DNA of 64,000 nt from an uncultured Magnetococcales bacterium (lineage in GTDB: Bacteria > Pseudomonadota > Alphaproteobacteria > UBA2136): NCBI GenBank assembly GCA_963974105.1, contig CAXBBG010000001.1, positions 706,793 to 770,792 of the forward strand, read 5' to 3'. Made by a program: the position numbers and the translations under genes. Below the pieces are notes generated by a model. The model ran no database searches, was not told the origin of the DNA, and worked only from the letters and a program-made list of their open reading frames with translations. Shown here in pieces: positions 17,338 to 57,002 of this stretch (positions within the stretch are counted from its first letter, which is position 1; every line of letters begins with the position of its first letter).

Positions 17338-17529
17338 TTATATATTCGATAGAATGATAAGTGTTGTTAAAACTGCGACCATAAAGGCAATAGATATAGC
17401 CCAAATGTAAATGTCACTTTGGCTTGCAGAGGAAATAATAAGCATATCCTCACGGCGTTCGTTTATAGGACGTCGGGTAGGTTTGTTTTTCCTACGCGCA
17501 GAGGTAGCTGTTTGTTTTGTTTTTGTCAT
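17338..17529 (-). CDS. small basic single-TM peptide, partner of DGC paralog 2
   Basis: Begins MTKTKQTATSARRKNKPTRRPINERREDMLIISS…, paralogous to 7455..7664. The 5' leader is also conserved between the two. Confidence 0.5.
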   Translation of the reverse strand: MTKTKQTATSARRKNKPTRRPINERREDMLIISSASQSDIYIWAISIAFMVAVLTTLIILSNI

Positions 17530-17675
17530 GATTTGCCCTGATTTTTATTCATCTATATAGTGTAGGTGTTTACAGAGCAGAATTCAATTGATGTTATAGA
17601 TTATTGTTTGATATTTATAGCTTATTACAGAGGCATGTCGCCTAAATTGCACTTTTATAGAAAAGGTTGTGTTTT

Positions 17676-17712
17676 ACGCATAAAAAAACAGCCTGAAGGC
17701 TGTTTTTAAAAA
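17676..17712. terminator. bidirectional hairpin terminator, repeated element copy 1
   Basis: AAAAAAACAGCC-TGAA-GGCTGTTTTT. It terminates the oprM-macB-macA operon. A near-identical copy lies at 41955-41992. Confidence 0.5.
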
Positions 17713-17734
17713 TTTCCTGCTGGATAAGCGTGCT

Positions 17735-25890: not shown

Positions 25891-25912
25891 AATATAAAAC
25901 TTCCAATGTTTG

Positions 25913-26644
25913 TTATTTTTGTGTACCAGCGTTTGCAATAGTGGCTATTTCTTTTGCTGTTTTTTCGCAACGTTCCGAGTAACGGTTTACAAGGTTTTGA
26001 GCCTGTGGGCGTAGTAAAATTGTAAAGCGCATAAGCTCCTCCATAACATCTACAATTCGTGCGTAATAATTAGAAGGTAACATACGCCCATCATCGTCAA
26101 ATTCTTTGTATGCCATTGCGACACTTGATTGATTTGGTATGGTAAACATACGCATCCAGCGCCCTAAAATACGCAATGTGTTAATGGTATTGAATGATTG
26201 AGACCCACCACTCACTTGCATAACAGCTAAGGTTTTTCCTTGTGTTGGGCGCACGCCACCCATATTTAAAGGTAAGTGGTCTATTTGTGTTTTCATGATA
26301 CCTGTGACGGTGCCATGACGTTCTGGACTGCACCATACTTGACCTTCTGACCATATGGAAAGTTCTCTAAGGTTTTTTACAGCAGGGTGTTCGCTATCAT
26401 TTTTATCATTGGGAAGTGGAAGGTCGGTTGGGTTGAAAATACGAACTTCTGCCCCAAGGTATGTTAAAATACGTGCAGCTTCTTCAACTGCAAGGCGTGA
26501 ATAAGAGCGTTCACGCAAGGATCCGTAAAGCATTAATATACGCGGAGGGTGGCCTTCAAAATTCATTCTTTGTAACTGCGAAGTATTCAAAGCGGGCATA
26601 TTGTTTATATCGGTTACATTGTGTAGGTATGGGTTCATAGGCAC
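25913..26644 (-). CDS. arsH: ArsH NADPH-dependent FMN reductase
   Basis: Flavodoxin-like NADPH:FMN reductase of ArsH length and pattern ([18 protein letters not shown]…). Confidence 0.85.
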
Positions 26645-26946
26645 TTCCCTTCTGCATTATTTTGCTTACTACAACAGTTTTCTTTTAAATAGTGGATAAG
26701 GTTTTCGATGGATTGGATGTTGGCTGTATAAATAATGGAGCGACCTTTTTTTTGTGATGTAATAAGCCCTGCTTGAGATAGGTGTGTTAAATGAAAAGAA
26801 AGGCTGTTATGCGGCATGTTTAAGGTTTTGCTTATTGTGCCGGCTGCTGTGCCTGTGTGTCCATATTCAACCAATATTTTAAACACCTTAAGGCGTGTTT
26901 CTTGAGAAAGTGCTGTAAAAGCCTCTGTTGCATTTTTTATATCCAT
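26635..26946 (-). CDS. arsR: ArsR/SmtB-family metalloregulator
   Basis: Winged HTH ([13 protein letters not shown]…[29 protein letters not shown]). It overlaps the arsH start. Confidence 0.8.
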
Positions 26947-28980: not shown

Positions 28981-29046
28981 CAATTTACAGAAACATAAGA
29001 GTCAGAAACAAAAAAGATAAATTATTAAAGGTAATTATAAGTATAT

Positions 29047-32000: not shown

Positions 32001-32619
32001 CCATTCAAATGTATTAACATCAACAGCTGGCACATTGGCGAACCAACTTGGTTACTCATATGCCTTCAATGCTGGCGACTTAACAGTTAACAAAGCCGAC
32101 TTAACAGTAACACTTATTGACAATGCACCAACAAAGGTAGAGGGCAATGTCAATCCAATTTTTGACCTTTCGTATACAGGCTTCAAGCTTGCTGACAACG
32201 CATCAGTTGTTGATACAATTAATGTGACAACACTGGCCGATACATCAAGCGGTGCGGGGGTATACAATATTGATATTGCAGGTAGTGATAACAACTACAA
32301 CCTACTTATAACAAATCCATCAGGTAAATTAACTGTCACCGCCAAGCCTGCAAGTAGTATACCTACGAAAGCTCAGATTTCAGCAAAACCTACAATAAGC
32401 GTTATTAATACCGCTACCAATAAGTCTATAAACAACTCAAATATAAACGTTCAATACAACGGTGCTAATAATTTATATGAAGAGGCAACTATTCTTGATG
32501 GGCTTATAAACATACATCCACGTGTTGCAGCCTTGTTCAAATTAAAGGGAGCAGACACACAAGTGACAACTGGTGACAGTAGGTGGAAACGTGACACCGT
32601 ATTACGTGGGCTTGAATAA
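29047..32619 (+). CDS. TpsA exoprotein with an N-terminal TPS domain, an internal LamG-like domain and a C-terminal MBG-like repeat
   Basis: TPS domain (NPAGGVISGGAATIT…IDWRSFDIDVGEHTEF…ANGNVVLINPNGLFFG). LamG-like segment (DWHHVAATLD…IFIDGVSMQTG…DDMRIYNTVL). MBG-like segment (YGDTYGG…GDLTVNKADLTVT). Confidence 0.85.
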   Translation: MFENKMLGVYFLCGVSMLALSPMSSVYANPAGGVISGGAATITSNANKLDIHQQTNRAVIDWRSFDIDVGEHTEFHQPSSSAIALNRVNSVDPSQIMGKLSANGNVVLINPNGLFFGASSRIDVNGLLATTVDIDTDDFMNGSMHFNKPGKSGAGIINQGLITAKEAGLVGLVAPNVINSGIIEAKYGQVHLSSADSMVVDFYGDGLYQLKVSDAVKSQIVQNTGTLISEGGVIAITAASGKDIVNSLIHIEGEVLAPTITQKEGRIIIAAAGSNAVEGNITASKGVKNGKSTVVLSKAYIDASGDETGEKGGVVEITADQIFLTDNSVLNTNGHSVENYNEAAIGTATMTASKEVRSADEFLAHENRVGGSIKIGGDYLGKGDTAAAEYVYVSHDSYIINDTIQSGDAGRTIVWADNTTEFSGNVFARGGLKGGHGGFLETSGKINLLAGGYADLQAKSGFKQGTYLLDPSVINIYGNIDSAFTTSNLINHWDFEEGSGATVTDQIGSDDGAITGAVYNADTPSILMPTSNDYSLDFSNDTVNFGDINAIELAPVTVSFWAKSDTTNADQGFLYKGIHSTNQPLLIWRDNAVGSGQQAGNSNAISVLVYDGATQDWVSTPTNSFNDTDWHHVAATLDPVTNNQIEIFIDGVSMQTGAMASNGIRANANNLTMGKATSGGTGLTGHMDDMRIYNTVLDAKNIEELSGNAFTVKGLELMSQTADIILQADNTINLDFDGEQLDLANDKSITLQTINGNITDNSAGTIRTNRTGAGGNITMTAGGSGSINLDTTNLEALSGGVVNLSAGGNVNLKQVSALNLNSVTGNTVTIQTTGSTADITLNNTITASNSGNAIIMASGDDFINNVGATVLNTTDMNGRWLVYSETPTANTRNSLLPDSSDYGFTYATLAPGAVTAGNHFIYSNATRPTLTYTVNDSSLEYGDTYGGSSISSVSGLLTGDTLANIGLTGSNFFTTTYTAGDNAGVHSNVLTSTAGTLANQLGYSYAFNAGDLTVNKADLTVTLIDNAPTKVEGNVNPIFDLSYTGFKLADNASVVDTINVTTLADTSSGAGVYNIDIAGSDNNYNLLITNPSGKLTVTAKPASSIPTKAQISAKPTISVINTATNKSINNSNINVQYNGANNLYEEATILDGLINIHPRVAALFKLKGADTQVTTGDSRWKRDTVLRGLE

Positions 32620-32801
32620 CTTTCAAAGTCAATTTCAACAAATATATACCCTGCCTCCTTATTCTGAGACCAAAAAAGAAATTAGTCTTTTGAGGCTGAA
32701 GATCAGAAGGGTGATTATTAATATAATTCCAAATGACTTTGGGTTGAAATTCACACCATAAAACCCCATAAAATTATAACACTAAAATTAAAGGCGCTAA
32801 G

Positions 32802-33206
32802 ATGGCGGCAAGACCTATGGTTAAGCCGCTTGCTAAAGTGACGAAGGGTGTGCGTGTAAAAGTTACTACAGTAAAACGTAATAAGTTGGTTGACTCTGTT
32901 AAGTTTGAGCCTAAGCAAATTCAAGCTAAATATAAACATAGCTCTAAAGCTTATGGTTTGGAAGGCAATTATAATAAAGCTAACGCTGCCAAGTTTGAAT
33001 CCTCTATTAAAAGTCATATGAAGAACCTTGATACAAAGGTTATAAAAGGCACGTATCTTAAAAAACCTGCAAAACACTTTTGCAATAAGGAAACAAATGT
33101 TAATGCTGTGACGAAAGAAGGTAAGTTTGTGACTACAAATAAACCTACTGAAAAACAAGTGATGCATTTATTAAAAAGTGGAAATTTAGGTGGAGGTTCA
33201 AATTGA
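32802..33206 (+). CDS. small lysine-rich basic hypothetical protein, candidate toxin
   Basis: 134 aa and very K-rich. RBS AAAGG upstream. Its stop overlaps the next ORF's start by 4 nt (ATGA). Confidence 0.4.
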   Translation: MAARPMVKPLAKVTKGVRVKVTTVKRNKLVDSVKFEPKQIQAKYKHSSKAYGLEGNYNKANAAKFESSIKSHMKNLDTKVIKGTYLKKPAKHFCNKETNVNAVTKEGKFVTTNKPTEKQVMHLLKSGNLGGGSN

Positions 33207-33517
33207 TGGATAAAAAAGCTCTTGAGTTGATATATTTGATAGAGGAAACTCTCACTGGGAAAATGAGACCTAATGACCTTCATGATAAGTTTTGGTCAGA
33301 TTTTTGGCCTAATACTAAAAATGATTGGCCAAACAAATCCTCGGAGGAAATTCAACAGCTAATAGCGTTAGATATTTTTGACGCCTTTGAGTGCTTTGAT
33401 GGTGAACATGCTATAACTGAAGCCAATGATGTACCATATGAACTAACAGAGGATGAATTCCTGAAAAAATGTAAAGAATTCCTGCCTAAGTTAAAAAAAG
33501 CCGTTAAGAAAATATGA
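33203..33517 (+). CDS. small acidic hypothetical protein, candidate immunity partner
   Basis: 104 aa and rich in D/E/W. Translationally coupled to 32802..33206. A terminator follows. Confidence 0.45.
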   Translation: MMDKKALELIYLIEETLTGKMRPNDLHDKFWSDFWPNTKNDWPNKSSEEIQQLIALDIFDAFECFDGEHAITEANDVPYELTEDEFLKKCKEFLPKLKKAVKKI

Positions 33518-33676: not shown

Positions 33677-34930
33677 TTACCTCACCACCAGCAACTCATC
33701 CCAACAACTGGTATAAGCAGGGCTTTGGTGCTGGCACAGGTTGCGCCATTTGCCGTTGGGGTTGGAAATGCCGAAGCGTAAGGTGTGTTTACCCATGGCG
33801 CTGTTAAGTTTGTCGATAGCGCCCATTAAGCTTTCACTGCGCTTGTTATCAACCACGCTGAATAAACTTGGCTGGTGCGTGCCTTGCTCTTGAATGCCGT
33901 GGAGGCATATGCCCGCTTTTTTGAACTCTACACCCGCTTTGAATATCTCATTGATGCCCTTTATGGCGGCTTTGGTTAGCACGGCGGTGTCACTTGTTGG
34001 GTCATCTAGGGTGATAACTGTAGAGTTTGCGTAATATTCACCTTTAAAGGGGCTAGAGCCTGCGTAAACTGTTATCATGCGTGCTTCTGTGCTTTCGCCC
34101 CGAAGTTTTTCTGCGCCTATGGCGGTGAATGTGCCAACGGCTTCTTTCAGGGTTTTAATATCGCTTACTGGGTTACCAAAAGAACGAGAGCTGATAATCT
34201 GTTTACGGTGTTCTGGCTCTTCACCAAAACTGTAGCAAGGCGTACCTTGTAACTCTAAAACCGTTTTTTCCGATACCACGCTTGTAATGTCACGCACTTG
34301 GGCAGGGTTGCACTGTGATAACTTCCACGCCGTGTTTAGTCCTAAACCTGTAAACTTTTCATTTAAGCACCTGCCAACACCCCACACGTCACCCACATCC
34401 ATACGCTGAAGGACAGAGCGCCTTGCTTGCAAGCTATCCATCAAATAGACACCTTCGGCTTGTTCGTATTTCTTCGCTATATTTGAAGATGCCTTGGCGA
34501 GCGTTTTCGTTGGTGCAATACCGATAGATACAGGAATACCCGTCCATTGTTCAACTTGTTTTCTTATACGCTGACAAAGTGGTTTTAGTTCATGTTCTGG
34601 AATGCCAGAAAGGTCTAGAAAAGCTTCATCCACTGAGTAAACCTCAATAGCAGGGGCCATGTCACGCAAAACGCTCATCACACGACGGCTCATCTCCCCA
34701 TAAAAGGATAAATTACCGCTGATACATTCGACATTATGTTCCGCCACCAGCTTTTTCATTTTAAAAACAGGCGCACCCATTTTAATGCCCAGCGCTTTCG
34801 CTTCGTTAGAGCGAGCCACAGCACAACCATCATTCGATGACAGCACAATAACAGGGCGGTTATTCAGGCTTGGCCTAAACACCCGCTCACAGGATACAAA
34901 AAAATTGTTACAGTCGACTAAGGCGTACAT
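33677..34930 (-). CDS. umuC: Y-family translesion DNA polymerase UmuC
   Basis: The N-terminus MYALVDCNNFFVSCERVFRP…VVLSSNDGCAVARSNEAKALGIKMG is colinear with E. coli UmuC (MFALCDVNAFYASCETVFRP…). Full length, 417 aa. Confidence 0.9.
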   Translation of the reverse strand: MYALVDCNNFFVSCERVFRPSLNNRPVIVLSSNDGCAVARSNEAKALGIKMGAPVFKMKKLVAEHNVECISGNLSFYGEMSRRVMSVLRDMAPAIEVYSVDEAFLDLSGIPEHELKPLCQRIRKQVEQWTGIPVSIGIAPTKTLAKASSNIAKKYEQAEGVYLMDSLQARRSVLQRMDVGDVWGVGRCLNEKFTGLGLNTAWKLSQCNPAQVRDITSVVSEKTVLELQGTPCYSFGEEPEHRKQIISSRSFGNPVSDIKTLKEAVGTFTAIGAEKLRGESTEARMITVYAGSSPFKGEYYANSTVITLDDPTSDTAVLTKAAIKGINEIFKAGVEFKKAGICLHGIQEQGTHQPSLFSVVDNKRSESLMGAIDKLNSAMGKHTLRFGISNPNGKWRNLCQHQSPAYTSCWDELLVVR

Positions 34931-35670
34931 GGATATATTATAATAGGCTTACTATCACTCAATGGAAATGCTGTTACAAAAACTTCTGGAAAGTCAGATA
35001 GGTCCTTCAAGTGTTCTTGTATTAAAGATGAAATTTCATGATCATCTATGCACAGTTTTATTACACCCATAGCATTGTCGTTACAATAAACAATGAGCCT
35101 CACATCATCAGGGTAACCTTTAGCTGATTTCTTTTTATAAGCGCCTTTAAATCGTTGAAAGGCCATATCATCCAAGTCATAATTTGAATTTGCTATGTGT
35201 GCATGTTCCCACGATGATTCTAACTCCAAACTCACACGCTTAAAGTGCTTGATAGACCCTGTACATGAAACATGCCTATGCAATGAAAACTTAAGCATTC
35301 TGAGTCTCGCATCTGTTCCATCAACAGTGCTCACTATTTGATAACCTTTGCCACCAATGTAAATATCAGCTCCATTTTCATCATTTTGATTGATTTGAAA
35401 AATAGCATATTGCTTTTCTAAAGCAATAGAATAGACAGCCTCAAGTTCCTCAAACCATTGCTCTCTTTTGCTAAAATCCCCTGACTGGAAGTATTCATGA
35501 CGTCTATAGGCACTTTCAAACACAGAATTGCGTATTTCATAACCTTTCATCAAGAATTCACACAAATCTTTACCAGTGAACTTTTTCAGCAAATTCTCTT
35601 CGGAAAAATGCTTTTCTAAATCATCAAAAGTGAACACGAGCCTAAACCCCTTTAATAATATTAGTGACAA
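34918..35670 (-). CDS. hypothetical protein encoded between umuD and umuC
   Basis: 250-aa ORF on the same strand. It overlaps the umuD stop by ~29 nt using a TTG start, and overlaps the umuC start by 13 nt. An internal ATG (M41) is an alternative start. No motif I recognise. Confidence 0.55.
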   Translation of the reverse strand: MSLILLKGFRLVFTFDDLEKHFSEENLLKKFTGKDLCEFLMKGYEIRNSVFESAYRRHEYFQSGDFSKREQWFEELEAVYSIALEKQYAIFQINQNDENGADIYIGGKGYQIVSTVDGTDARLRMLKFSLHRHVSCTGSIKHFKRVSLELESSWEHAHIANSNYDLDDMAFQRFKGAYKKKSAKGYPDDVRLIVYCNDNAMGVIKLCIDDHEISSLIQEHLKDLSDFPEVFVTAFPLSDSKPIIIYPCTP

Positions 35671-36199
35671 CGCCCCACATGCCTAGCTCTTCACCTTCGG
35701 TAAGTTCTATGTTGGGAATGTCGTCATTTTCTGCTATGAGCGTTACACGGCCACCGAAACGCTCATAGCGCTTAACTGTTAGGTCCCCATCAACGACAGC
35801 TATGATGATTTTGCCGTTTTTAACTTCTAAGCTTCTATCAACAATTAACAGGTCACCATCGTCGATACCCGCGTTAATCATCGACTTACCACTTGCGCGC
35901 ACGAAGAACGTCGCCGCAGGGTGCTTTATGAGGTGTTCGTTGAGGTCGAGTTTTCTGTCCACATGGTCACTCACCCCGAAAGGTGTACCTGCTGAAACCG
36001 TTCCCTGCATTAAAGGAATATTATAATCAGCCTTACCCGCAAGGAATGACTTTACATCATCCACCTTATGTTCAGGCACGCGCATAACCTTGGTTGCACT
36101 ACCGTACTGCCCCGTCCCCTTCGGGCGACCTGCACCCATTCTTTTTCCACCGTGATTTTTCATAACTTGATTATTGTTACATTTAATTGAAATTATCAA
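35642..36199 (-). CDS. umuD: UmuD-like S24 peptidase with an N-terminal basic AT-hook-like extension
   Basis: The C-terminal domain is colinear with E. coli UmuD ([40 protein letters not shown] vs [40 protein letters not shown]), with the Ser and Lys catalytic dyad present. The N-terminus carries [14 protein letters not shown]. Confidence 0.85.
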   Translation of the reverse strand: [185 protein letters not shown]

Positions 36200-36711: not shown

Positions 36712-38385
36712 ATGTCACACTTTACGCCTAAATTATGGACTTTCATAAAAAACGGATATTCAAAAGAACTGTTACGTGCCGATGGTATTGCGGGGTTAAC
36801 TGTTGCTATTATTGCACTTCCATTGGCAATGGCCATTGCTATTGCCAGTGGTACTTCACCTGAAAAGGGTTTGATTACAGCTGTTATCGGTGGTTTCTTT
36901 ATATCTACTTTTGGTGGGTCGAGGTTTCAGATTGGTGGGCCTACAGGAGCGTTTATTGTTGTCGTTTATAATGTCATATTAAATCATGGATATGATGGGC
37001 TGATTCTTGCCACTTTAATTGCAGGTTTTATATTGTTAATTGCAGGCTATAGTAAGCTTGGTCAGGTTATTAAATATGTGCCTTATTGTGTTATTACAGG
37101 TTTTACTGCAGGGATAGCTGTTATCATTGCATCCTCCCAGGTAAAAGATTTTTTAGGGTTACACCTTGAAGAGGCGCCCGTTAATTTTATTCTTAGATGG
37201 CAGGCATATTTTATGTCGTGGGATACGCTTAATATAAGTGCTTTTTTCGTCGGAATAGCAGCCTTGCTTGTTATCATTGTATTGAAAAAATTTAAGCCTA
37301 AAATGCCTGGCTATTTAATTGCTATTATTATTTGCAGTTTGCTTGTTTCTCTGTTCCAGATTCCTGTTGAGACAATAGGAACAACGTTTCCTGAAATGTC
37401 TACAGGTTTATCAATGCCGCCCTTACCTGTATGGAACTTTGAGAAGATATTAAGTATTATACCCTCTGCCTTTACAATTGCTTTTTTGGCTGGGATAGAA
37501 TCGCTTCTATCTGCTGTAGTGGCTGATGGGATGGTGGGTACTAAGCACCGCCCAAATCAGGAACTTGTAGGGCAGGGTGTTGCTAATATTGCATCGTCAT
37601 TATTTGGTGGAATACCTGTTACGGGCGCAATTGCACGTACAGCAACAAATATTAAAGCGGGTGGGAAAACACCAATGGCGGGTATATTTCATGCCTTCTT
37701 TGTACTTTTGTTTGTGTTGTTTGCGATAAATGTTATGGCCTATATTCCGATGGCAGCCTTGGCGGCTATATTATTTGTTGTAGCATGGAGCATGAGTGAG
37801 GTGCACCACTTTACACATATTTTACGTTTACCAAGCTCTAGCCGAATTGTTATGCTGCTGACTTTTTTCTTAACTATTTTTGTAGATTTAACAGTCGCCA
37901 TTGGCGTTGGTGTTACGTTTGCTTCTCTCTTGTTTATGAAAAATATGACTCAGCTGGTTGATATTAAATCTGAAGGTCGCCGTGGGGAAAACACGTCTGA
38001 AAGTCAACTTTCAGGTGATTCGTTGGGAAATGATGCCCTCCTTGACGATGTCGAGGTTTTTCGTATTATGGGGCCATTGTTCTTCGGTGTTGCAGGTGAC
38101 TTTTTGGATATGCTTAAATCTATAGGCGAAGATCCTAAGGTGTTTATTTTACGGTTACGTTTGGTTCCTTATTTAGATGCAACGGGTACCTTGGCTATAG
38201 AAAATATTGTTAAACACTGCCACGAAAAAAATATATTTGTTATTTTAAGTGGTGTGCAAGAACAGCCTAAAAAAATGTTAGAAAAGACAGGGGTTATTAT
38301 CACTTCTAATCAGGTGTTTTATAGTCCTAACTATAAAGCGTCCTTAAAATTAGCTAAGAATTTAATGACCAAGGATTATAATTGA
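36712..38385 (+). CDS. SulP-family anion (sulfate) permease with a C-terminal STAS domain
   Basis: Polytopic SulP core followed by a STAS-like C-terminal ~130 aa. Confidence 0.85.
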   Translation: MSHFTPKLWTFIKNGYSKELLRADGIAGLTVAIIALPLAMAIAIASGTSPEKGLITAVIGGFFISTFGGSRFQIGGPTGAFIVVVYNVILNHGYDGLILATLIAGFILLIAGYSKLGQVIKYVPYCVITGFTAGIAVIIASSQVKDFLGLHLEEAPVNFILRWQAYFMSWDTLNISAFFVGIAALLVIIVLKKFKPKMPGYLIAIIICSLLVSLFQIPVETIGTTFPEMSTGLSMPPLPVWNFEKILSIIPSAFTIAFLAGIESLLSAVVADGMVGTKHRPNQELVGQGVANIASSLFGGIPVTGAIARTATNIKAGGKTPMAGIFHAFFVLLFVLFAINVMAYIPMAALAAILFVVAWSMSEVHHFTHILRLPSSSRIVMLLTFFLTIFVDLTVAIGVGVTFASLLFMKNMTQLVDIKSEGRRGENTSESQLSGDSLGNDALLDDVEVFRIMGPLFFGVAGDFLDMLKSIGEDPKVFILRLRLVPYLDATGTLAIENIVKHCHEKNIFVILSGVQEQPKKMLEKTGVIITSNQVFYSPNYKASLKLAKNLMTKDYN

Positions 38386-38420
38386 TTTGTTTTTAGGACT
38401 GCGCCTACCTAACCCTCTGA

Positions 38421-38528
38421 TTACATGTAAGCTTCTCTAAGCTCTTTTACGGCAAAGTGTTCGCTGTTATTGGCAATATTAGGAATAGGAAATTCGGCTG
38501 GGTTAAAAATTCTACACAAAACAATCTG
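38421..38528 (-). pseudogene. arsH gene fragment, internal ~35 codons
   Basis: The minus-strand translation QIVLCRIFNPAEFPIPNIANNSEHFAVKELREAYM* aligns to ArsH residues …[31 protein letters not shown]… encoded at 25913..26644. About 60% identity by eye. DNA similarity is also visible. Confidence 0.6.
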
Positions 38529-38591
38529 TTTAATTAATTTACAATAATTTAATGTAGATATATTATATAAAGAAAAGAAGGTTATAAATTT

Positions 38592-39989
38592 ATGTTTCTT
38601 GAATGGCTCGATCCTGTATTGCTTGCACGCATTCAGTTTGCATTTACAATTTCATTTCACATTATTTTCCCAGCGTTTACTATAGGCCTTGCAAGTTGGC
38701 TTGCTGTGGTTGAATATTGTTACCTTAAAACAGGTAATAAAGCTTACGAGCAAATCTATAAAATGTGGGTTAAAATTTTCTCTGTTTGCTTTGGTTTAGG
38801 TGTTGTGTCAGGCGTGGTTATGAGTTACCAATTCGGTACAAACTGGTCTCTTTTTAGCGATAAAGTTGGAAACGTTATTGGCCCTTTATTAGGCTATGAA
38901 GTTCTCACAGCCTTCTTTCTTGAAGCTTCATTCTTAGGTATTATGCTTTTTGGTTGGGGACGTGTTAGCAAAAAAATGCATTTTGTATCTACCTGTATTG
39001 TCGCAATCGGCACGCTTATTTCTGCCTTTTGGATAATATCGGCTAATAGCTGGATGCAAACCCCTCAAGGTTTTGAATGGGGTCCTGACGGTCTGATGTA
39101 CCCAACAAACTGGATTGAAATTATTTTTAACCCTTCCTTTGTTCCAAGGCTATTTCATATGATTACAGCAGCCTATCTTACAACTGCCTTTGTTGTTGGC
39201 GGTGTTTCTTCTTACTACTTATGGAAGAAAATACATACACAACACGCTCGAATTATGCTTTTTATGGCTATGCTGATGGCTATATTTATAGCACCTCTTC
39301 AATTATTTATAGGGCATGAGCACGGCGCCAATACAATGGAGCATCAACCTATAAAAGTAGCAGCTATGGAGGGTAATTGGGAGCGTGGTACAAATAAACC
39401 TCTTTACTTGTTTGGATTACCTAACCAAACAGCTGAAACAACTGATTACGGCATAACTATTCCAAATGGTGCTAGCTGGGTACTAACAGGAAAACCTGAT
39501 GGGGAGATTCCTGGTCTAAAAGATGTATCTGCAGATAAAAGACCGCCAGTCGCAGTTGTTTTTTGGAGCTTTCGCATTATGGTTGGGCTAGGTTTTGCTA
39601 TGATTTTTACAGGTGTTGTCGCTGTTATTTTACTGTGGCGAAAAACGATATTCACTGATAAATGCTTCCATTTATGGTGTATGGCTATGACACCGAGCGG
39701 CTTTATAGCTGTTCTTGCAGGTTGGTTTGTAACAGAGGTGGGCAGGCAGCCTTACACCGTTTATGGTGTATTAAGAACCAGTAATAGCGTTTCACCTGTT
39801 ATTGCTGAACAAGTGTTCTTGTCATTAATTGCCTTCATTATCGTTTACACAGTGTTATTTGGTGCAGGCGTTTACTACATTTCAAAATTGATTGCTAAAG
39901 GCCCTGTAGTTGCTAAGGATGAAGGGATTTATCACGATCATTCTATCGAAGCTGCCTTAACTAAAAAACTTACAGAGAAAGATGACTAA
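38592..39989 (+). CDS. cydA: cytochrome bd ubiquinol oxidase subunit I
   Basis: MFLEWLDPVLLARIQFAFTISFHIIFPAFTIGLASWL… is the canonical CydA N-terminus. Short Q-loop type. Confidence 0.9.
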   Translation: MFLEWLDPVLLARIQFAFTISFHIIFPAFTIGLASWLAVVEYCYLKTGNKAYEQIYKMWVKIFSVCFGLGVVSGVVMSYQFGTNWSLFSDKVGNVIGPLLGYEVLTAFFLEASFLGIMLFGWGRVSKKMHFVSTCIVAIGTLISAFWIISANSWMQTPQGFEWGPDGLMYPTNWIEIIFNPSFVPRLFHMITAAYLTTAFVVGGVSSYYLWKKIHTQHARIMLFMAMLMAIFIAPLQLFIGHEHGANTMEHQPIKVAAMEGNWERGTNKPLYLFGLPNQTAETTDYGITIPNGASWVLTGKPDGEIPGLKDVSADKRPPVAVVFWSFRIMVGLGFAMIFTGVVAVILLWRKTIFTDKCFHLWCMAMTPSGFIAVLAGWFVTEVGRQPYTVYGVLRTSNSVSPVIAEQVFLSLIAFIIVYTVLFGAGVYYISKLIAKGPVVAKDEGIYHDHSIEAALTKKLTEKDD

Positions 39990-39991
39990 AC

Positions 39992-41014
39992 ATGTTTGAT
40001 TTTGCATCTTATATTGACCTGCCGCTTGTATGGTTTGGACTCATTTCAACTGCGGTATTTCTATATGTACTTTTAGACGGCTTTGATCTAGGGTGTGGTA
40101 TTCTTTTCCCATTTGCACCATCTGATAAATGCCGTAATAAAATAATGAACTCCATTGCACCTTTTTGGGATGGTAACGAAACTTGGCTTGTACTAGGAGG
40201 TGGAGGGTTGTTCGCAGCATTCCCATTGGCATATTCAATTATTATGCCGGCTCTTTACTTGCCAATCATCTTAATGCTTTTAGGGCTTATTTTTCGTGGA
40301 GTTGCTTTTGAATTTCGCTTTAAATCGCACAGTGAAAAAGAACAAAAAATTTGGGACACAGCCTTTCATGGTGGTTCCCTTCTTGCTGCATTAATGCAAG
40401 GGATTGTATTAGGGAATATTATTCAAGGTATTGAAGTGACGGAACGAAGTTTTTCTGGTGGCCCTTTAGATTGGGCTAATGGATTTGCATTTTTCACAGG
40501 TATTTCTCTTGTCTTTGGTTATGCGCTTATTGGTGCTGCATGGATGGTTATGAAAACCAATGGACAGACACAGGTATGGGCACGTAAAACAGGGCGTTAT
40601 GTTCTTGTTTTTGTTTTGCTAGCACTTATAATTGTTAGTGTTTCGATGCCTTTTATCGATGAAAGAATTTGGAATATATGGTTCACTACACCAAACATTT
40701 ATTACTTATTTCCATTGCCTTTAACCACTATGTTTTTAATTTATTTGCTAAGGAAAGACTTTGGAACAGACCGTGAAATCCGCCCTTTCTTGCTTAGTAT
40801 AACTATCTTTTTACTTGGGTTTATAGGGTTGGGTATTAGCCTATTCCCTTGGTTGGTACCATTTGAATTTACTATATGGGAAGCTGCCGCGGCAAGCACA
40901 TCACAATCTCTACTACTTGTAGGGACTGTTATCTTTTTACCAATCATTCTCACTTACACAGCTTATAGCTATTATATATTTAGAGGGAAAAGTGGTGACA
41001 AGCCAATGTATTAA
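39992..41014 (+). CDS. cydB: cytochrome bd ubiquinol oxidase subunit II
   Basis: Membrane protein immediately downstream of cydA with a CydB-like pattern (LDGFDLGCGILFPF…WDGNETWLVLGGG). Confidence 0.9.
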   Translation: MFDFASYIDLPLVWFGLISTAVFLYVLLDGFDLGCGILFPFAPSDKCRNKIMNSIAPFWDGNETWLVLGGGGLFAAFPLAYSIIMPALYLPIILMLLGLIFRGVAFEFRFKSHSEKEQKIWDTAFHGGSLLAALMQGIVLGNIIQGIEVTERSFSGGPLDWANGFAFFTGISLVFGYALIGAAWMVMKTNGQTQVWARKTGRYVLVFVLLALIIVSVSMPFIDERIWNIWFTTPNIYYLFPLPLTTMFLIYLLRKDFGTDREIRPFLLSITIFLLGFIGLGISLFPWLVPFEFTIWEAAAASTSQSLLLVGTVIFLPIILTYTAYSYYIFRGKSGDKPMY

Positions 41015-41141
41015 AAAGATTTTATCTCAGCTTAATAAGTCTCAAAAACAGTGGCTATGGTTCATAGCCCTGTGGTGCAGTGGTGCACTAGCCATGACAG
41101 TACTTTCATACGTCATCCGCCTAATTATGAATATAAAATAA
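40992..41141 (+). CDS. putative CydX-like small membrane subunit
   Basis: 49-codon ORF starting at GTG, with AGAGGG 4 nt upstream. It overlaps the last 23 nt of cydB. The hydrophobic core QKQWLWFIALWCSGALAMTVLSYVIRLIM resembles CydX (MWYFAWILGTLLACSFGV…). The start is uncertain. Confidence 0.3.
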   Translation: MVTSQCIKKILSQLNKSQKQWLWFIALWCSGALAMTVLSYVIRLIMNIK

Positions 41142-41212
41142 TTTAAGCGAAGACAGATAGCTCTATTTAAATGAGCCTTTTATTATACAATGCATTTGTG
41201 CAGATATATCAT

Positions 41213-41340
41213 TTAGTTTGGCACAGCCAACTCATTGCATTTTCCTGTAGGGTTTGAAATGCTGTAACGAATTGTGCTTTTACCCATAGCGCTGTAAAAG
41301 CTGTCAAACACAACTTTACTAAATGGTTGCATGGCCTGGC
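41213..41340 (-). pseudogene. umuC 3'-terminal gene fragment, ~40 codons
   Basis: The minus-strand translation MQPFSKVVFDSFYSAMGKSTIRYSISNPTGKCNELAVPN* aligns to the UmuC C-terminus IDKLNSAMGKHTLRFGISNPNGKWRNLCQHQ encoded at 33677..33800. Nucleotide similarity is also visible. Confidence 0.6.
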
Positions 41341-41484
41341 ATAGTGAATTGTCATTGTTTTTGCGTTATTATGAAGGTGTCTTAATTTGTAATGATTATC
41401 AATTGATTTTAAGTAGGGTGCAGGGTAAATTAGTCTTAATAATTATAGAGGGTTAGTGGTGCTGGCTTGTTTAAGGGGAAGAAG

Positions 41485-41823
41485 ATGAAAAATATAATAT
41501 TGGTAATTTTAATGTTTTTAACAACAGCATGTAATGCAAAAAGCGATGAATCTAGGTTTGAGGATTACAAAAATCAAGAAGAATTTGAGGCAAAAATAAA
41601 AGAAATGTTTCCTATCGGTGGTGATTTTGAGGATTTGAAAGGGCAGGTTTCTGAGGTACAGTGGGCAGAGAGTACACATGAGAAAAATTTATATGGCTTT
41701 ATTCATTCCAAAGGTGCTTGGTGGCCATTTTCTGCTCATTATTGGGTTGTGGGTATATCTATTGACCCAAAATCTAAGAAAATTTTAAAAGTTTCAGCAC
41801 AAAATTCAATAACACATTTATAA
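41485..41823 (+). CDS. small lipoprotein
   Basis: MKNIILVILMFLTTAC lipobox signal. GGGGAAG RBS upstream. The start was moved to the second Met. Confidence 0.5.
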   Translation: MKNIILVILMFLTTACNAKSDESRFEDYKNQEEFEAKIKEMFPIGGDFEDLKGQVSEVQWAESTHEKNLYGFIHSKGAWWPFSAHYWVVGISIDPKSKKILKVSAQNSITHL

Positions 41824-41954
41824 CGAAAAAGGTATAAAGGCAATGGCAAAAATTGCAGTTTGAGAGAAAAGGCGTAAATTCCCTGATAAATAAAAATATC
41901 AACCCACTTTTGTGGTGATTGCATGGCCGGAACGGCGCAGAAAGGCGGGGTTTT

Positions 41955-41992
41955 GCACATAAAAAAACAGCCCGAAGGCTGTTTTTAAGAAT
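41955..41992. terminator. bidirectional hairpin terminator, repeated element copy 2
   Basis: CATAAAAAAACAGCC-CGAA-GGCTGTTTTTAAGAAT matches 17676-17712 at about 35 of 38 positions. It lies between the lipoprotein gene and tRNA-Ala. Confidence 0.45.
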
Positions 41993-41993
41993 C

Positions 41994-42069
41994 TGGTGGA
42001 TCCTAACGGGATCGAACCGTTGACCTCCTGCATGCAAAGCAGGCGCTCTCCCATCTGAGCTAAGGACCC
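41994..42069 (-). tRNA. tRNA-Ala (anticodon UGC)
   Basis: The reverse complement is GGGTCCTTAGCTCAGATGGGAGAGCGCCTGCTTTGCATGCAGGAGGTCAACGGTTCGATCCCGTTAGGATCCACCA. It has the G3:U70 identity pair, a TGC anticodon loop, a T-loop GGTTCGATCC and an encoded CCA. Confidence 0.9.
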
Positions 42070-42202: not shown

Positions 42203-43039
42203 TTATAATATTTGCCCTAAATAATACCATTCACCGCCAGGTTTTGCTTGAATAGAGGGCATAATAATAACACCATCTATAGGGCTGATGAATTTTTTAT
42301 CACCAAGTTTACCTATAACGTCGCCCTTCTTTAATGTATCCATATTACTCCAAACTTTTACAAACTCCGCACCGTCTTCTTTGATAACAGTTTGTATGTA
42401 TTTGGCGCGTATAGGTTTTGGGAAGGGCTTGATGTCGTGCTTAACCATACCGAATGCTGACAATACATTTAATATGTTTTCATAAGCAACGTGAGGCGCT
42501 TCTGAACTTTTGTGTTGGCCACATTCAAGTGTGGCTGCAGCTGTATCGTGAATTTTGGCGTAACCTGTGGTGGACATTTGAGCCGTTTTTTTATATTTAC
42601 TACCCCAATCTGTGTATATGGTGTTTACGTGTAAGCTTCGTATTAAAGTTTTATTATCGTCTGATGGCATTTCTTCAAAAGTTGAAGGTGTGCTTTTTGA
42701 TGTCATTGAATGGATATCTAGTAAAATATCGCAGTTTTCTATCAGAGGGCAAAGGATATTGGCAATTTTTTGTTCGTTTGTTGTTGGTTTGGAATGCGGC
42801 ATTATACAACGGTTCAGATCTTGATCTATATAGCGTATTTCCGCATTATAAGCGGCTTGATTACAAATAGGAATAAAAGTAACCTGACCTTTCAATAGTT
42901 CAATAGAGCCGTCATTTAAGGCCTTCATGATATTGTTAATCGCAACGGTTCCGCATGTTTCGTTGCCGTGAATAGCGCCAAAAATAAGCACGTGCTTACC
43001 TTTTTTACTTGCTTTGTATGTGTAGTTTTTAATTTCCAT
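42203..43039 (-). CDS. succinylglutamate desuccinylase/aspartoacylase-family zinc hydrolase (AstE/AspA)
   Basis: HGNE zinc-binding motif (LIFGAIHGNETCG) and M14-like fold. Confidence 0.75.
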   Translation of the reverse strand: MEIKNYTYKASKKGKHVLIFGAIHGNETCGTVAINNIMKALNDGSIELLKGQVTFIPICNQAAYNAEIRYIDQDLNRCIMPHSKPTTNEQKIANILCPLIENCDILLDIHSMTSKSTPSTFEEMPSDDNKTLIRSLHVNTIYTDWGSKYKKTAQMSTTGYAKIHDTAAATLECGQHKSSEAPHVAYENILNVLSAFGMVKHDIKPFPKPIRAKYIQTVIKEDGAEFVKVWSNMDTLKKGDVIGKLGDKKFISPIDGVIIMPSIQAKPGGEWYYLGQIL

Positions 43040-44608: not shown

Positions 44609-45349
44609 ATGTATTTACGTTTAGCAGAAGATAGGGGCTTTGCCCGTATGCATGACGGTGGCATTGAAAGTTTTCATAGTTTCTCCTTTGGGCACTATTG
44701 GGATAAAAATCATATGGGTTATTCTGCCTTGCGTGTTATTAACGACGATGTTTTTAAGCCTCAGCAAGGGTTTGATACCCATGAACATAGTGATATGGAA
44801 ATATTAACCTATGTAACAAAGGGCGCTTTGACGCATGAAGATACTTTAGGGCATAAAGAGGTTATTCAAGCGGGGCATGTCCAGTTGATGCGTGCAGGAA
44901 CAGGGATTGCGCACAGTGAATTTAATGCCAGTAAAACGGATTCGGTTAAATTATTACAAATTTGGATTAAGCCAAATAAAAAAGGTCTTAAACCTGCATA
45001 TGGAACAATGACGGTACCGCCACATGAAGGGTTAAAACTGATAGCGAATAATCAACCCAATGCGCAGCAACAAGGTCATTTGTATATAGCGCAAGACGCT
45101 CAAATTTTTATAGGGCATGAATCAAGAGACGCTGAAATAGTTTATAATATCGCTAAGGGCAGGCAAATCTATATGCACCTTATCAGAGGTGAATTGTGTT
45201 TGAATGAGGCACATTGGTTAGATGAAGAGGTGTATTTAGCCGCAGGTGACGGTCTTGGCCTTAAAAGTGAACATGACAAATTACATATACATGCCTTAAA
45301 GGGTGTAGAATATATTTTGTTTGACTTACCAGAGGATGTTTCTCTTTAA
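44609..45349 (+). CDS. pirin-family cupin protein
   Basis: Metal-binding His pattern HxH…H…E (GFDTHEHSDMEILTYV…GTGIAHSEFN). Confidence 0.85.
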   Translation: MYLRLAEDRGFARMHDGGIESFHSFSFGHYWDKNHMGYSALRVINDDVFKPQQGFDTHEHSDMEILTYVTKGALTHEDTLGHKEVIQAGHVQLMRAGTGIAHSEFNASKTDSVKLLQIWIKPNKKGLKPAYGTMTVPPHEGLKLIANNQPNAQQQGHLYIAQDAQIFIGHESRDAEIVYNIAKGRQIYMHLIRGELCLNEAHWLDEEVYLAAGDGLGLKSEHDKLHIHALKGVEYILFDLPEDVSL

Positions 45350-47536: not shown

Positions 47537-49165
47537 ATGATGCCAAGAGAGTCTATGCCATTTGACGTTATTGTTGTTGGGGCTGGGCCTGCGGGCTTGT
47601 CTGCGGCTATTCGTTTGAAACAAGTCGCAGCTGAAAAACAAATGGATATTTCTGTTTGTGTTGTTGAAAAAGGTGCTGAAGTAGGTGCTCATTTGCTTTC
47701 TGGCGCTGTTTTTGAACCACGTGCCTTAAACGAACTTCTACCAAATTGGGAAGATTTGGGGGCACCCTTAAAAACTAAAGTGACGGCGGATAAGTTTGCT
47801 TGGATGCGTCATCAAAATGCAATGCATGTTTTGCCTACACCACCACAAATGCATAATGCAGGTAATTACATTATAAGCCTTGGTGAATTGGGTAAATGGC
47901 TTGCTGTACAAGCCGAGTCTTTAGGTGTTGAAATTTATCCAGGTTTTGCGGCTTCAGAAGTTCTATATCATGAAGATGGTAGCGTAAAAGGTGTTGCCAC
48001 GGGTGACATGGGCATTGGTAAAAATGGCGAAAAAACTGATAACTATGTACAAGGTGTAGAATTACATGCCAAACAAACTATTTTTAGTGAAGGTTGTCGA
48101 GGTTCACTCACTAAAACGGTTATAGAAAAATTTAACTTAGATGCAGCAAAAGACCCTCAAACCTATGCCTTAGGCATTAAAGAGGTATGGGAAATTAAAC
48201 CTGAAAATCATAAAGAAGGTACTGTGCTACACACAATTGGTTGGCCTTTGAAAAATGACACTTACGGTGGCTCTTTTGTTTACCATATGGCTGACAATAA
48301 AATATCTGTTGGTTTTGTGGTGGGTCTTGATTACACAAATCCAACGCTTTCTCCATTTGAAGAAATGCAACGATATAAACACCACGCAGAGATTTCATCT
48401 TTATTAGAAGGTGGTAAACGCATTGCTTATGGCGCGCGTACCTTGGTTGAAGGTGGTGTTCAATCTATGCCAAAATTGACATTTCCTGGAGGTATGCTTG
48501 TGGGTGATTGTGCTGGAACATTGAATGTGGCTAAAATAAAGGGTAACCATACAGCGATGAAAAGCGGTATGGTGGCAGCAGACGCTATATTAGAACATTT
48601 TAAAGCTGGCGGCACACATGAAGAAGTAGTGGCATACGAAGTGAATTTTAAAGCTTCTTGGGCTTATAAAGAACTTTATAAAGTGCGCAATATTCGCCCT
48701 GGTTTCCAAAAAGGTCTTATACGTGGTTTATTAAACGCAGCTAAGGAAACTTATGTAGGTTCAAGCGGTACTTTAAGTAACCATGCTGACCATAGCCAAC
48801 TTAAACTATCAAGTGCTGTTAAGGCGATTGTATATCCTAAACCTGATGGTGTGATTAGTTTTGATAGGCTTTCTTCAGTATTTTTGTCGAACACGTTCCA
48901 CGAAGAAAATCAGCCAATTCACTTAAAGCTTAAAGATGAGTCTACAGCTGTTGATGTGAACTATAAAAATTTTGCATCACCTGAAACAAAATATTGTCCA
49001 GCAGGGGTTTATGAAATTTTAGAAGCTGCTGATGGTATTGTAACGCTTCAGATAAATGCCGCTAATTGCTTGCACTGTAAGGCTTGCGATATTAAAGATC
49101 CTAAGCAAAATATCACTTGGACAGTGCCTGAAGGTGGCGGTGGTCCTAATTACGGTACAATGTAA
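47537..49165 (+). CDS. electron-transferring-flavoprotein:ubiquinone oxidoreductase
   Basis: N-terminal FAD fold (DVIVVGAGPAGLSAAIRL). C-terminal 4Fe-4S ferredoxin-like Cys cluster (CPAGVYE…CLHCKACDIKDP). Confidence 0.9.
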   Translation: MMPRESMPFDVIVVGAGPAGLSAAIRLKQVAAEKQMDISVCVVEKGAEVGAHLLSGAVFEPRALNELLPNWEDLGAPLKTKVTADKFAWMRHQNAMHVLPTPPQMHNAGNYIISLGELGKWLAVQAESLGVEIYPGFAASEVLYHEDGSVKGVATGDMGIGKNGEKTDNYVQGVELHAKQTIFSEGCRGSLTKTVIEKFNLDAAKDPQTYALGIKEVWEIKPENHKEGTVLHTIGWPLKNDTYGGSFVYHMADNKISVGFVVGLDYTNPTLSPFEEMQRYKHHAEISSLLEGGKRIAYGARTLVEGGVQSMPKLTFPGGMLVGDCAGTLNVAKIKGNHTAMKSGMVAADAILEHFKAGGTHEEVVAYEVNFKASWAYKELYKVRNIRPGFQKGLIRGLLNAAKETYVGSSGTLSNHADHSQLKLSSAVKAIVYPKPDGVISFDRLSSVFLSNTFHEENQPIHLKLKDESTAVDVNYKNFASPETKYCPAGVYEILEAADGIVTLQINAANCLHCKACDIKDPKQNITWTVPEGGGGPNYGTM

Positions 49166-49173
49166 TAAAAAAA

Positions 49174-49198
49174 GCCTCCAAAATGGAGGCTTTTTTTT
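49174..49198. terminator. bidirectional terminator
   Basis: GCCTCCA-AAA-TGGAGGC hairpin flanked by A7 and T8 runs. It can serve both ETF-QO (+) and the convergent protease gene (-). Confidence 0.6.
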
Positions 49199-50708: not shown

Positions 50709-50764
50709 GTTTTTTCTCGTATGTTTAAAAGGGGAGTATATACTAGATTGTTATTTATTAGGTA

Positions 50765-50792
50765 ATAAAAAAAGCCCCCTTGATGGAGGCTT
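50765..50792 (-). terminator. candidate terminator downstream of the giant gene
   Basis: An imperfect hairpin AGCCTCC…GGGGCT followed by a T run on the minus strand. Confidence 0.35.
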
Positions 50793-50807
50793 TTTAAGTT
50801 GTTTAAA

Positions 50808-56822: not shown

Positions 56823-57002
56823 TTTGTTACCCTTAATATAATAATCATACACACAATATAGCTCGCTATCATACAAGCATACAAACTTATAGGTGTGGAT
56901 GATAATAAAAAAATGACATAAGGCAATGCGTTGTAGATATATAATGTTGGGATGTGACAAAAACTCCCATATTGCTTATGGTAAGCTTATTTATTACATT
57001 TC

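Follow-up and report, generated by a model that had tools for sequence, protein, structure and literature searches.

Remnants of arsH and umuC in the spacers flanking the cydAB operon of an alphaproteobacterial genome

The cytochrome bd oxidase operon located at 38592..41141 on the plus strand of the window, i.e. of the whole 64-kb stretch of DNA analysed, is intact. It is made up of cydA (38592-39989; PF01654, E 8e-169, profile positions 1-418), cydB (39992-41014; PF02322, E 3e-97, profile positions 1-302) and a 49-aa ORF (40992-41141), which had been described as CydX-like in an earlier note on this DNA and was instead found to encode a DUF2474-type protein, kept after cydB in 27 other loci. 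Homologues sharing 75-77% identity can be aligned starting from residues 1-6. The operon is preceded by an intact gene for a SulP/DauA-type anion transporter (sulP, 36712..38385, plus strand) and followed by a gene encoding a putative lipoprotein of 118 aa without family assignment (41467..41823, plus strand), by a conserved non-coding block (41836..41993) and by tRNA-Ala(UGC), which is located at 41994..42069 on the minus strand and adjoins an AstE-like gene, an arrangement found in every syntenic relative.

Two further groups of genes are found upstream. The first is an ars cluster, composed of a gene for an ACR3-type pump (acr3, 24856-25938), of arsH (25913..26644, minus strand), whose product is recognised by Pfam and by TIGR02690 (E 2e-113), and of arsR (26635-26946). 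The nearest homologue of this ArsH (P0010, 78% identity) is encoded in an arsR-arsH-arsC context with unrelated surroundings, not syntenic with the window. The second group is formed by umuD (35642-36199), an unknown ORF (34918-35670) and umuC (33677..34930, minus strand), whose product matches the Pfam families IMS, IMS_C and DUF4113 and the NCBIfam UmuC model (1.7e-118). No relative of the local UmuC exceeding 49% identity was detected among 1.84 billion representatives, and the best identity against plasmids, 44%, does not indicate a donor. The ORF interposed between umuD and umuC produced nothing meaningful in Pfam, PADLOC and NCBIfam, and one weak match in PHROGs (E 0.004), to a family without assigned function; its single-sequence AlphaFold2 model has a pLDDT of 35.7.

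Both spacers directly flanking the cydA-cydB unit contain sequences related to these genes, which confirms the bracketing arrangement described in the earlier note. Within the 206-nt spacer running from the sulP stop (38385) to the cydA start (38592), an internal fragment of arsH, 115 nt in size, is found on the minus strand at 38396..38510, at a distance of 10 nt from the sulP stop codon. It corresponds to nt 205-320 of the intact gene, i.e. to ArsH residues ~68-107, with a DNA identity of 74.1% over 116 columns. The translation of its minus strand between 38421 and 38528, RIFNPAEFPIPNIANNSEHFAVKELREAYM*, is the one originally quoted, at the quoted distance of ~12 kb from intact arsH, and the peptide encoded by the relic is identical to the intact local ArsH at 21/34 residues. 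The frame is interrupted by an in-frame stop, resulting from a TGG to TAA change at 38421-38423, and is also broken by a 1-nt deletion; identity at the DNA level runs past the stop codon and across the frameshift, with mismatches distributed as 11/6/12 over the three codon positions. A promoter-like site for cydA, at 38538-38566, is located outside the relic.

The ArsH proteins encoded in ars operons are NADPH-dependent FMN reductases (PDB 2fzv, 2q62; TIGR02690; PF03358 FMN_red), and the part aligned to the relic includes their conserved RIF(N/D)P...HPAVKELRE..WSEG segment. The sole PDB match of the unmodified 36-aa peptide is ArsH 2fzv (E 0.006, or 7.6e-6 when stops are read as W), and the sole NCBIfam match is TIGR02690 ArsH (E 0.022, profile positions 60-87). 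When 120 ArsH sequences were compared with the relic, the window's own ArsH ranked first, with the 21 identical residues reported above against 19 for the next best; at the DNA level, the relic resembles the arsH of the window, whereas the nearest foreign arsH shows no similarity. In contrast to a functional ArsH, a full-length frame of ~240 aa is absent, the relic being truncated at both ends by the sulP and cydA flanks: with ~38 of ~240 codons left, and these disrupted by a stop and a frameshift, it has lost the capacity to encode an enzyme.

The second relic is contained in the 325-nt spacer that separates the stop of the DUF2474 gene (41141) from the lipoprotein gene, whose start is at 41467. 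It is located at 41228..41308 on the minus strand and spans ~27 codons of the C-terminal region of umuC, corresponding to UmuC residues 372-398. At the DNA level, 41238-41298 matches umuC nt 1124-1184 with 75.4% identity over 61 nt, and mismatches are distributed as 4/3/8 over codon positions. The peptide SAMGKSTIRYSISNPTGK is encoded within a minus-strand ORF of 39 aa (41213-41332), provided with a start codon. The peptide and the distance of ~7.5 kb from intact umuC had been correctly given in the earlier note; the range assigned to the fragment there, 41213-41340, gives the wrong frame when translated as such, being 8 nt too long, and is correct in other respects.

Identity of the peptide to the local UmuC extends to 15/26 residues, while the same residues match those of 150 UmuC representatives at 8/26 positions at most (mean 4.3), and the motif SAMGK.T.R..ISNP.GK is found, among the 150 family representatives, only in the UmuC of the window. 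No match to the relic was obtained in Pfam, NCBIfam and PDB, Pfam being equally negative for the arsH fragment; a profile built on 150 other UmuC C-termini did not detect it (E 3.2), and a search for homologous proteins, using a 45-aa fragment, gave no candidates. In relation to UmuC, the Y-family protein that forms the catalytic subunit of DNA polymerase V (PF00817, PF11799, PF13438 DUF4113), the relic aligns inside the DUF4113 domain of the local protein, but retains only ~27/417 codons, and its similarity is specific to the local UmuC lineage and invisible to family profiles. The relic is short and is recognised only through one pairwise match, that with the window's own UmuC; evidence independent of the window's own genes was obtained for the arsH relic only.

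Both fragments were recovered when the window was compared with itself. In a tblastn search of the window with its own proteins, ArsH residues 67/68-101 align to 38412-38516 (E 6e-8 and 1e-8) and UmuC residues 372/373-398 to 41228-41308 (E 4e-4 and 2.5e-4), while comparison of the entire window against itself by blastn yielded E-values of 1e-12 for the arsH relic and 5.5e-4 for the umuC relic. Statistical significance was evaluated by producing 1500 dinucleotide shuffles of each spacer: the observed Smith-Waterman scores were never reached for either of them, and the corresponding Gumbel p values are 1.6e-13 (arsH) and 5.6e-8 (umuC). Protein-to-DNA and DNA-to-DNA comparisons over the whole window revealed that these are the only such relics in 64 kb, both found within 3 kb. 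Neither belongs to an intact gene read in a different frame: both are intergenic, lying between sulP and cydA and between the DUF2474 and lipoprotein genes, respectively.

The similarities might in principle be due to chance, or the ORFs of 32 aa (38421-38519, within the arsH relic) and 39 aa might encode functional small proteins, given that both fragments lie in short ORFs with start codons and that the umuC one is missed by Pfam, PDB and the family profile. The shuffle statistics reported above, the continuation of DNA identity beyond the stop codon and across the frameshift, and the lack of a Shine-Dalgarno-like sequence, on reading the region upstream of the 39-aa ORF, make this extremely improbable; in addition, two independent relics, adjacent to each other and matching in order and orientation, are very unlikely to occur by chance. 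As judged from the sequence, the two elements are real, dead pseudogene fragments, paralogous to the intact local genes, and both spacers should be annotated as such rather than as small ORFs.

Comparison with the sets described above (ArsH, n=120; UmuC, n=150) indicates that both relics are closest to the intact local copies. The pair also keeps the strand and the order of the intact arsH/umuC pair, and DNA divergence from the respective intact copy is ~25% for each relic. Because of this agreement in relatedness, strand, order and divergence, a second segment, containing arsH and umuC genes from the lineage of the intact copies, is concluded to have existed at this position and to have been eroded; in the most probable reading, it was produced by a segmental duplication within this lineage and decayed by mutation and deletion. 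Both relics would derive from one event, and the copy would have originated within the genome itself, without a second import. Mutation would have come first, with the stop and the frameshift in the second arsH; deletions would then have removed nearly all of the segment, leaving ~115 nt of one gene and 60-80 nt of the other. The remnants would have survived because they form spacers between genes still under selection, and they account for most of the sulP/cydA and DUF2474/lipoprotein spacers; beyond serving as spacer DNA, they presumably do nothing. The spread of mismatches over codon positions is what is expected under relaxed constraint.

The duplication is supported to a lesser extent than initially suggested. 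The earlier note had envisaged an entire island, including ars, tps and umuDC, of which one copy was eroded; the results support this for a segment bearing arsH and umuC, while duplication of the whole island is unsupported, because tblastn detected no relics of acr3, arsR, tpsB, tpsA, umuD and the inserted ORF, nor of any other gene of the window, either near cydAB or elsewhere in the window. Moreover, intact arsH and umuC are separated by 7.4 kb and the two relics by 2.8 kb, and the former pair encloses tpsBA while the latter encloses cydAB, a difference that calls for one or more additional insertions or replacements.

Base composition was evaluated for the genes of the region. The GC3 of umuD and umuC is 0.46-0.47 (0.47 for umuC), compared with 0.26-0.37 for every other gene tabulated, and the compositional edges are sharp and coincide with gene borders. 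The ars, tps, sulP and cydAB genes do not stand out from the remainder of the window in composition. The hypothesis of one island of foreign composition, comprising ars, tps and umuDC, was considered and rejected, as only umuD and umuC deviate; for the same reason, the three gene sets did not form a single unit of recent acquisition. Compared with the intact copy, the umuC relic is shifted towards AT (9 substitutions versus 2), while no asymmetry is observed for arsH (13 versus 12).

These data bear on a possible, though rather unlikely, sequence of events in which the relics are the older residents and the intact copies, at least of umuD and umuC, were imported later from a related donor, the old copies thus becoming dispensable and decaying. 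The foreign-looking GC3 of intact umuD and umuC and the AT-shift of the umuC relic fit such a later import equally well; relatives carry unrelated, partly mobile DNA at the locus, and a published survey (PMC522871) reports that failed horizontal transfers seem to be the source of a large fraction of prokaryotic pseudogenes. On the other hand, the lack of asymmetry for arsH and the native-looking composition of the intact ars genes do not suggest an import, and the same rare UmuC lineage, without relatives above the 49% identity found in the representative library, would be needed as donor twice. In addition, by a rough estimate, a divergence of ~25% would correspond to too little time for full amelioration, so that the observed composition would also be compatible with duplication.

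In order to evaluate the genomic context of the operon elsewhere, CydA was searched against genome and metagenome contigs. This resulted in 160 cydA-containing loci, the best being 75-77% identical; none of them is syntenic with the window, and in none is arsH or sulP found beside cydAB. The nearest loci have unrelated neighbours and the position of the operon is not conserved; at one distant locus (L104), umuDC is found 5.5 kb from cydA. Such variation in position, the occurrence of umuDC at L104 and the closeness of the relics to the cydA-cydB-DUF2474 unit, whose ends are 81 nt and 86-96 nt away from them, would agree with the arrival of cydAB as a fragment of ~2.9 kb, from a donor in which it lay between arsH and umuC, the relics being imported already truncated. 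This is considered very improbable, in view of the lack of arsH beside cydAB in all 160 loci (0/160), of the closer similarity of the relics to the recipient's own genes and of the native-like composition of cydAB. Duplication within the lineage, followed by decay, remains the preferred reading.

Synteny with related genomes was examined starting from the tRNA gene. Five loci (L086, L168, L169, L173 and L177) have the ETF, pirin, APH and AstE genes in common with the window, plus tRNA-Ala where the contig reaches it; beyond the tRNA-Ala region, their DNA differs or the contig ends. The conserved non-coding block of ~160 nt, directly 3' of tRNA-Ala and including a terminator hairpin at 41963-41986, is common to the distant relatives L169 and L173, and is ~75% identical in relatives whose AstE proteins are only 41-42% identical. 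The block is directly followed by unrelated DNA, and in L173 the synteny break is occupied by a helicase and a large serine recombinase. The comparison shows that the conserved backbone ends at ~41836, ~160 nt past the tRNA and not at the tRNA itself, the lipoprotein gene being the last of the non-syntenic region. Since relatives differ completely there, one of them with a serine recombinase, the locus beyond tRNA-Ala and the adjoining ~160 nt is variable. The interpretation given in the earlier note is supported as regards the synteny break and the variability, but not as regards a single ars-tps-umuDC island.

The block matches no Rfam family, and RNAalifold, run on three sequences, provided no covariation support beyond the terminator hairpin. 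It is conceivable, although doubtful, that the ~150 nt at 41836-41960 are an undescribed small RNA gene or a recombinase attachment site, at which mobile elements of this alphaproteobacterial clade would preferentially integrate; in that case, the DNA containing the relics would represent the remains of successive elements landed there.

Att-like direct repeats of the tRNA-Ala 3' end, a check proposed in the earlier note, were looked for. The body of the tRNA is not repeated in the window, where it has only chance matches of 10-11 nt; a 64-nt direct repeat, however, is located at 17662..17725 on the plus strand, with 83% identity to 41941-42001 (E 1.7e-10). It is composed of ~20 nt from the start of the conserved block, of the hairpin and of 8 nt belonging to the tRNA-Ala 3' end. 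The hairpin copy at 17.7 kb carries window-specific sequence, differing from that of L169 and L173. The repeat sits just downstream of the stop codon of a nodT-like gene, for which it could serve as a terminator, and a second pair of similar terminators is present in the window (49162-49195 and 50762-50795). The 17.7-kb terminator copy and a GGDEF gene pair are other lineage-specific direct duplications observed nearby, in favour of a duplication within this lineage also for the relics.

The two copies of the repeat might be read as the att sites of a 24.3-kb element (17726 to ~41993) inserted at tRNA-Ala, with relics and intact copies both carried as cargo. Only genes of accessory type lie between the repeats and synteny with relatives stops near the tRNA; however, the portion of the conserved block at 41836-41940, common to L169 and L173, has stayed on the island side, while integration would require it to have been moved past the distal repeat. 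An island inserted at the tRNA, as suggested in the earlier note, is disfavoured because the native downstream DNA is still attached to tRNA-Ala. Furthermore, no integrase or recombinase was found between 17 and 42 kb among the scanned ORFs of at least 100 aa, intergenic peptides being inspected by eye, in agreement with the statement of that note that no integrase or transposase survives; together with the unrepeated tRNA body and the presence of a similar terminator pair elsewhere, this makes such an element improbable.

Under the preferred reading of a duplicated and decayed arsH-umuC segment, as well as under the alternative of later import, the history of the region includes duplication or re-acquisition, followed by deletion, which implies that the functional ars and umuDC genes had redundant partners. 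The relics themselves result from gene decay of an ordinary kind, in a chromosomal region that is variable, and reveal no new mechanism. The backbone border at ~41836 may be of help in the study of this variable locus in a poorly sampled, low-GC alphaproteobacterial lineage.

Genomic islands linked to tRNA genes, including those formed by tandem accretion, provide a first term of comparison, being variable accessory regions starting close to a tRNA gene. As in these systems, an accessory region is found near the tRNA and relatives carry different DNA there, including the serine-recombinase element of L173; unlike them, the window has no integrase among the scanned ORFs, the tRNA body is not repeated, synteny is lost ~160 nt past the tRNA, where a conserved non-coding block ends, and composition is native except for umuDC. 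The relics themselves resemble decaying pseudogenes retained as intergenic spacers in bacteria subject to deletional bias, a situation described for Buchnera (PMC3164680); deletional bias and the dynamics of pseudogene loss are treated in PMC2817411 and PMC2916853, respectively. In both settings the gaps between intact genes are occupied by short, frame-disrupted remnants of recognisable genes, with mismatches over all codon positions, and only fragments bounded by functional genes survive. In the window, however, intact paralogues of the lost genes are present at a distance of a few kb, so that function is not lost, and accessory genes abound in the region, unlike in a minimal symbiont genome.

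In plus-strand order, the locus starts with genes for an ACR3 pump, arsH and arsR (24856-26946, all minus strand; arsH at 25913-26644), followed by tpsB (27280-28980), tpsA (29047-32619), a colicin-D-domain ORF with a small ORF (32802-33517), and umuC, an unknown 250-aa ORF and umuD (33677-36199, all minus strand; umuC at 33677-34930). A sulP/dauA-like transporter gene (36712-38385) is separated by an arsH-like fragment from cydA, cydB and a 49-aa DUF2474-type ORF (38592-41141), and these by a umuC-like fragment from a lipoprotein gene of 118 aa (41467-41823), tRNA-Ala (41994-42069, minus strand) and an AstE-like deacylase gene (42203-43039, minus strand). The small ORF 3' of cydB, whose position is kept in 27 other cydAB loci, had been read as CydX-like in an earlier note, but gives a weak match to DUF2474, not CydX. 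Within the region 27280-33517, TpsB carries POTRA and ShlB domains and TpsA (1190 aa) TPS and laminin-G-like domains; 3' of the pair, a separate 134-aa ORF carries a domain of colicin D, a tRNase toxin, and the 104-aa ORF beside it may encode the cognate immunity protein.

Both fragments are probably true pseudogene remnants, one of a second arsH and one of a second umuC, which belonged to the lineages of the intact copies and have been worn down to spacers. In a tblastn search of the window proteins against the window, ArsH residues 67/68-101 aligned to 38412-38516 (E 6e-8 without and 1e-8 with composition correction) and UmuC residues 372/373-398 to 41228-41308 (E 4e-4 and 2.5e-4); the two fragments that the earlier note had expected from the window's own ArsH and UmuC were recovered, with no other relic of such kind. 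By DNA self-comparison of the whole window, arsH nt 205-320 match 38396-38510 with 74.1% identity (E 1e-12), and umuC nt 1124-1184 match 41238-41298 with 75.4% (E 5.5e-4). Similarity by chance is excluded, since none of 1500 dinucleotide-preserving shuffles came near the observed score for either spacer (Gumbel p 1.6e-13 for arsH and 5.6e-8 for umuC). No intact gene in any other frame runs across either relic.

The arsH relic (38396-38510, minus strand) lies 10 nt from the sulP stop and 81 nt from the cydA start, and the promoter-like site of cydA (38538-38566) falls outside it. On the minus strand, 38421-38528 translates to QIVLCRIFNPAEFPIPNIANNSEHFAVKELREAYM*, the ArsH-like peptide being present as originally quoted. 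An in-frame TAA replaces a Trp conserved in ArsH, a 1-nt deletion is found further along the alignment, and mismatches fall on all codon positions in both the arsH relic (11/6/12) and the umuC relic (4/3/8); these are marks of pseudogenes. Among 177,635 PDB sequences, the unmodified 36-residue peptide matches 2fzv (ArsH, Shigella) only, with E 0.006; when stops are read as Trp, the value becomes 7.6e-6 and 2q62 is matched as well. TIGR02690 ArsH is the sole NCBIfam match (E 0.022).

The umuC relic (41228-41308, minus strand) lies within a 325-nt spacer 3' of the DUF2474 ORF, where the minus-strand ORF 41213-41332 translates to MQPFSKVVFDSFYSAMGKSTIRYSISNPTGKCNELAVPN; the peptide previously reported is there, while the length of the range assigned to it, 41213-41340, puts it out of frame. 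The fragment has no match in Pfam, NCBIfam or PDB, nor a significant one to a profile of C-termini from 150 other UmuC representatives (E 3.2). It is putatively identified from its pairwise match to the UmuC of the window, a protein that is itself rather isolated: the closest match of that UmuC among 1.84 billion representatives searched is 49% identical.

Among the intact gene's best 120 ArsH homologues, the window's ArsH is nearest to the arsH relic (21 of 34 residues; next best 19, mean 16). The relic is similar in DNA to the window's arsH, and DNA similarity to the nearest foreign arsH (locus L082) was not detectable. For the umuC relic, 15 of 26 residues agree with the local UmuC, compared with no more than 8 (mean 4.3) in the 150 representatives, and the motif ISNP.GK occurs in the local UmuC only. 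The relic pair matches the intact pair in order, strand and DNA divergence. Three observations speak for segmental duplication within this genome as the origin of the second copy: each relic has its closest match in the local copy, this lineage of UmuC is a rare one, and other direct duplications are found nearby. One of these is a pair of GGDEF genes (5752-7455 and 15613-17325), with 50% amino-acid identity and 70-78% DNA identity in parts. With their upstream DNA, which is partly conserved, these diguanylate cyclase paralogues span 5752-7709 and 15613-17572, in direct orientation and about 9.9 kb apart.

The second copy may instead have come through a second import, a reading to which the foreign composition of umuDC lends weight. 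GC3 is 0.26-0.37 in all tabulated genes but umuC (0.47) and umuD (0.46), the highest in the window, and the intact umuDC looks imported. The tightly packed ORF between the two (34918-35670, minus strand, 239-250 aa) is native-like in GC3 (0.31), and composition changes at the gene borders; the ORF has no meaningful match in Pfam, NCBIfam, PHROGs or PADLOC, and its single-sequence AlphaFold2 model is unusable (pLDDT 35.7). Compared with intact umuC, its relic is AT-shifted (9 sites against 2), and the arsH pair is symmetric (13 against 12). Since only umuD and umuC deviate, ars, tps and umuDC do not form one compositional unit; in addition, the protein-versus-window search detected no remnant of acr3, arsR, tpsBA, umuD or the inserted ORF alongside the relics. 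Neither result supports the duplicated ars/tps/umuDC island formerly proposed as one unit.

All window proteins looked up fall in clusters of 1-2 members at 90% identity, from a contig of 871 kb, and the source lineage is thinly sampled. A 5.8-kb metagenome contig (L081) is nearly identical to the window; syntenic contigs were reached through homologues of the AstE-like protein. L086, a contig labelled Alphaproteobacteria MAG, has the entire right flank in common with the window (giant ORF-ETF-pirin-APH-AstE-tRNA-Ala; identity about 80% for ETF, 71% for APH and 57% for AstE) and stops 2 nt past the tRNA (L086 10970-11047); contigs L170, L174 and L177 break within or just before it. In L086 (7637-8355), pirin, which the window has as an intact gene (44609-45349), is broken up into several short ORFs; this suggests gene decay there. 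The giant 2050-aa ORF (50808-56960, minus strand), with extensive internal DNA repeats of up to 91% identity over 219 nt, has no Pfam match; its L086 counterpart, 38% identical over 741 aligned residues, has a weak YadA_head match. In contig L168, a 23S rRNA gene comes about 350 nt beyond APH-AstE-tRNA (region 2279-2841); no rRNA gene is present in the window, and either this link is absent there or L168 is arranged differently or reflects an assembly path through a repeated tRNA.

Two relatives, with AstE proteins 41-42% identical to that of the window, extend past the tRNA. In L169, the matching flank and tRNA-Ala are followed by a terminator, a conserved non-coding stretch of ~150-170 nt and two 240-aa ORFs, one with an Exo_endo_phos match; in L173, by the conserved stretch, a helicase and a large serine recombinase. 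This stretch of ~150 nt (window 41836-41993, L169 9027-9198, L173 4029-4205) shows about 75-79% column identity to the window, and unrelated DNA starts right past it in all three. The conserved backbone thus ends at ~41836, not at the tRNA, and DNA left of this point is lineage-specific throughout. The block has no Rfam family and no covariation support from the three sequences; it may, with low probability, encode a small RNA or act as an attachment site for a recombinase, which would make the locus an integration hot spot. Directly after it, L173 4327-6855 encodes an AAA_30/SLFN-type helicase and a large serine recombinase (Resolvase and Recombinase domains), and looks like a mobile element at a position variable in the window.

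A classical tRNA-linked island is a less likely source of the relics. The earlier note proposed a check for att-like direct repeats of the tRNA-Ala 3' end. The tRNA body has no repeat within the window; 8 nt of its 3' end belong to a 64-nt direct repeat (17662-17725 and 41941-42001; 83% identity, E 1.7e-10, copies 24.3 kb apart), which also includes the conserved block's first ~20 nt and the terminator hairpin. As L169 and L173 have other hairpin sequences, the copy at 17.7 kb originated in the window's lineage; and as the native downstream block is still joined to the tRNA, the pair is unlike attL/attR of a tRNA-inserted element. The repeat could be a duplication scar or reflect terminator reuse. 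A second near-identical terminator hairpin pair with flanks (49162-49195 and 50762-50795; 88% identity over 34 nt) indicates that similar terminators recur in this genome.

Import of the relics as ends of a cydAB fragment is likewise less likely. Elsewhere, the neighbours of the nearest cydAB loci (75-77% identity) are unrelated and include no arsH, umuC or sulP; the exception is one distant locus, where umuDC lies 5.5 kb off. The second arsH and umuC were probably eroded until only spacers between still-needed genes were left. The persistence of gene remnants as intergenic spacers under deletional bias is well described (PMC3164680, PMC2817411, PMC2916853 and PMC522871), and the arsH and umuC relics are a further instance of this known phenomenon, unsurprising to a specialist.
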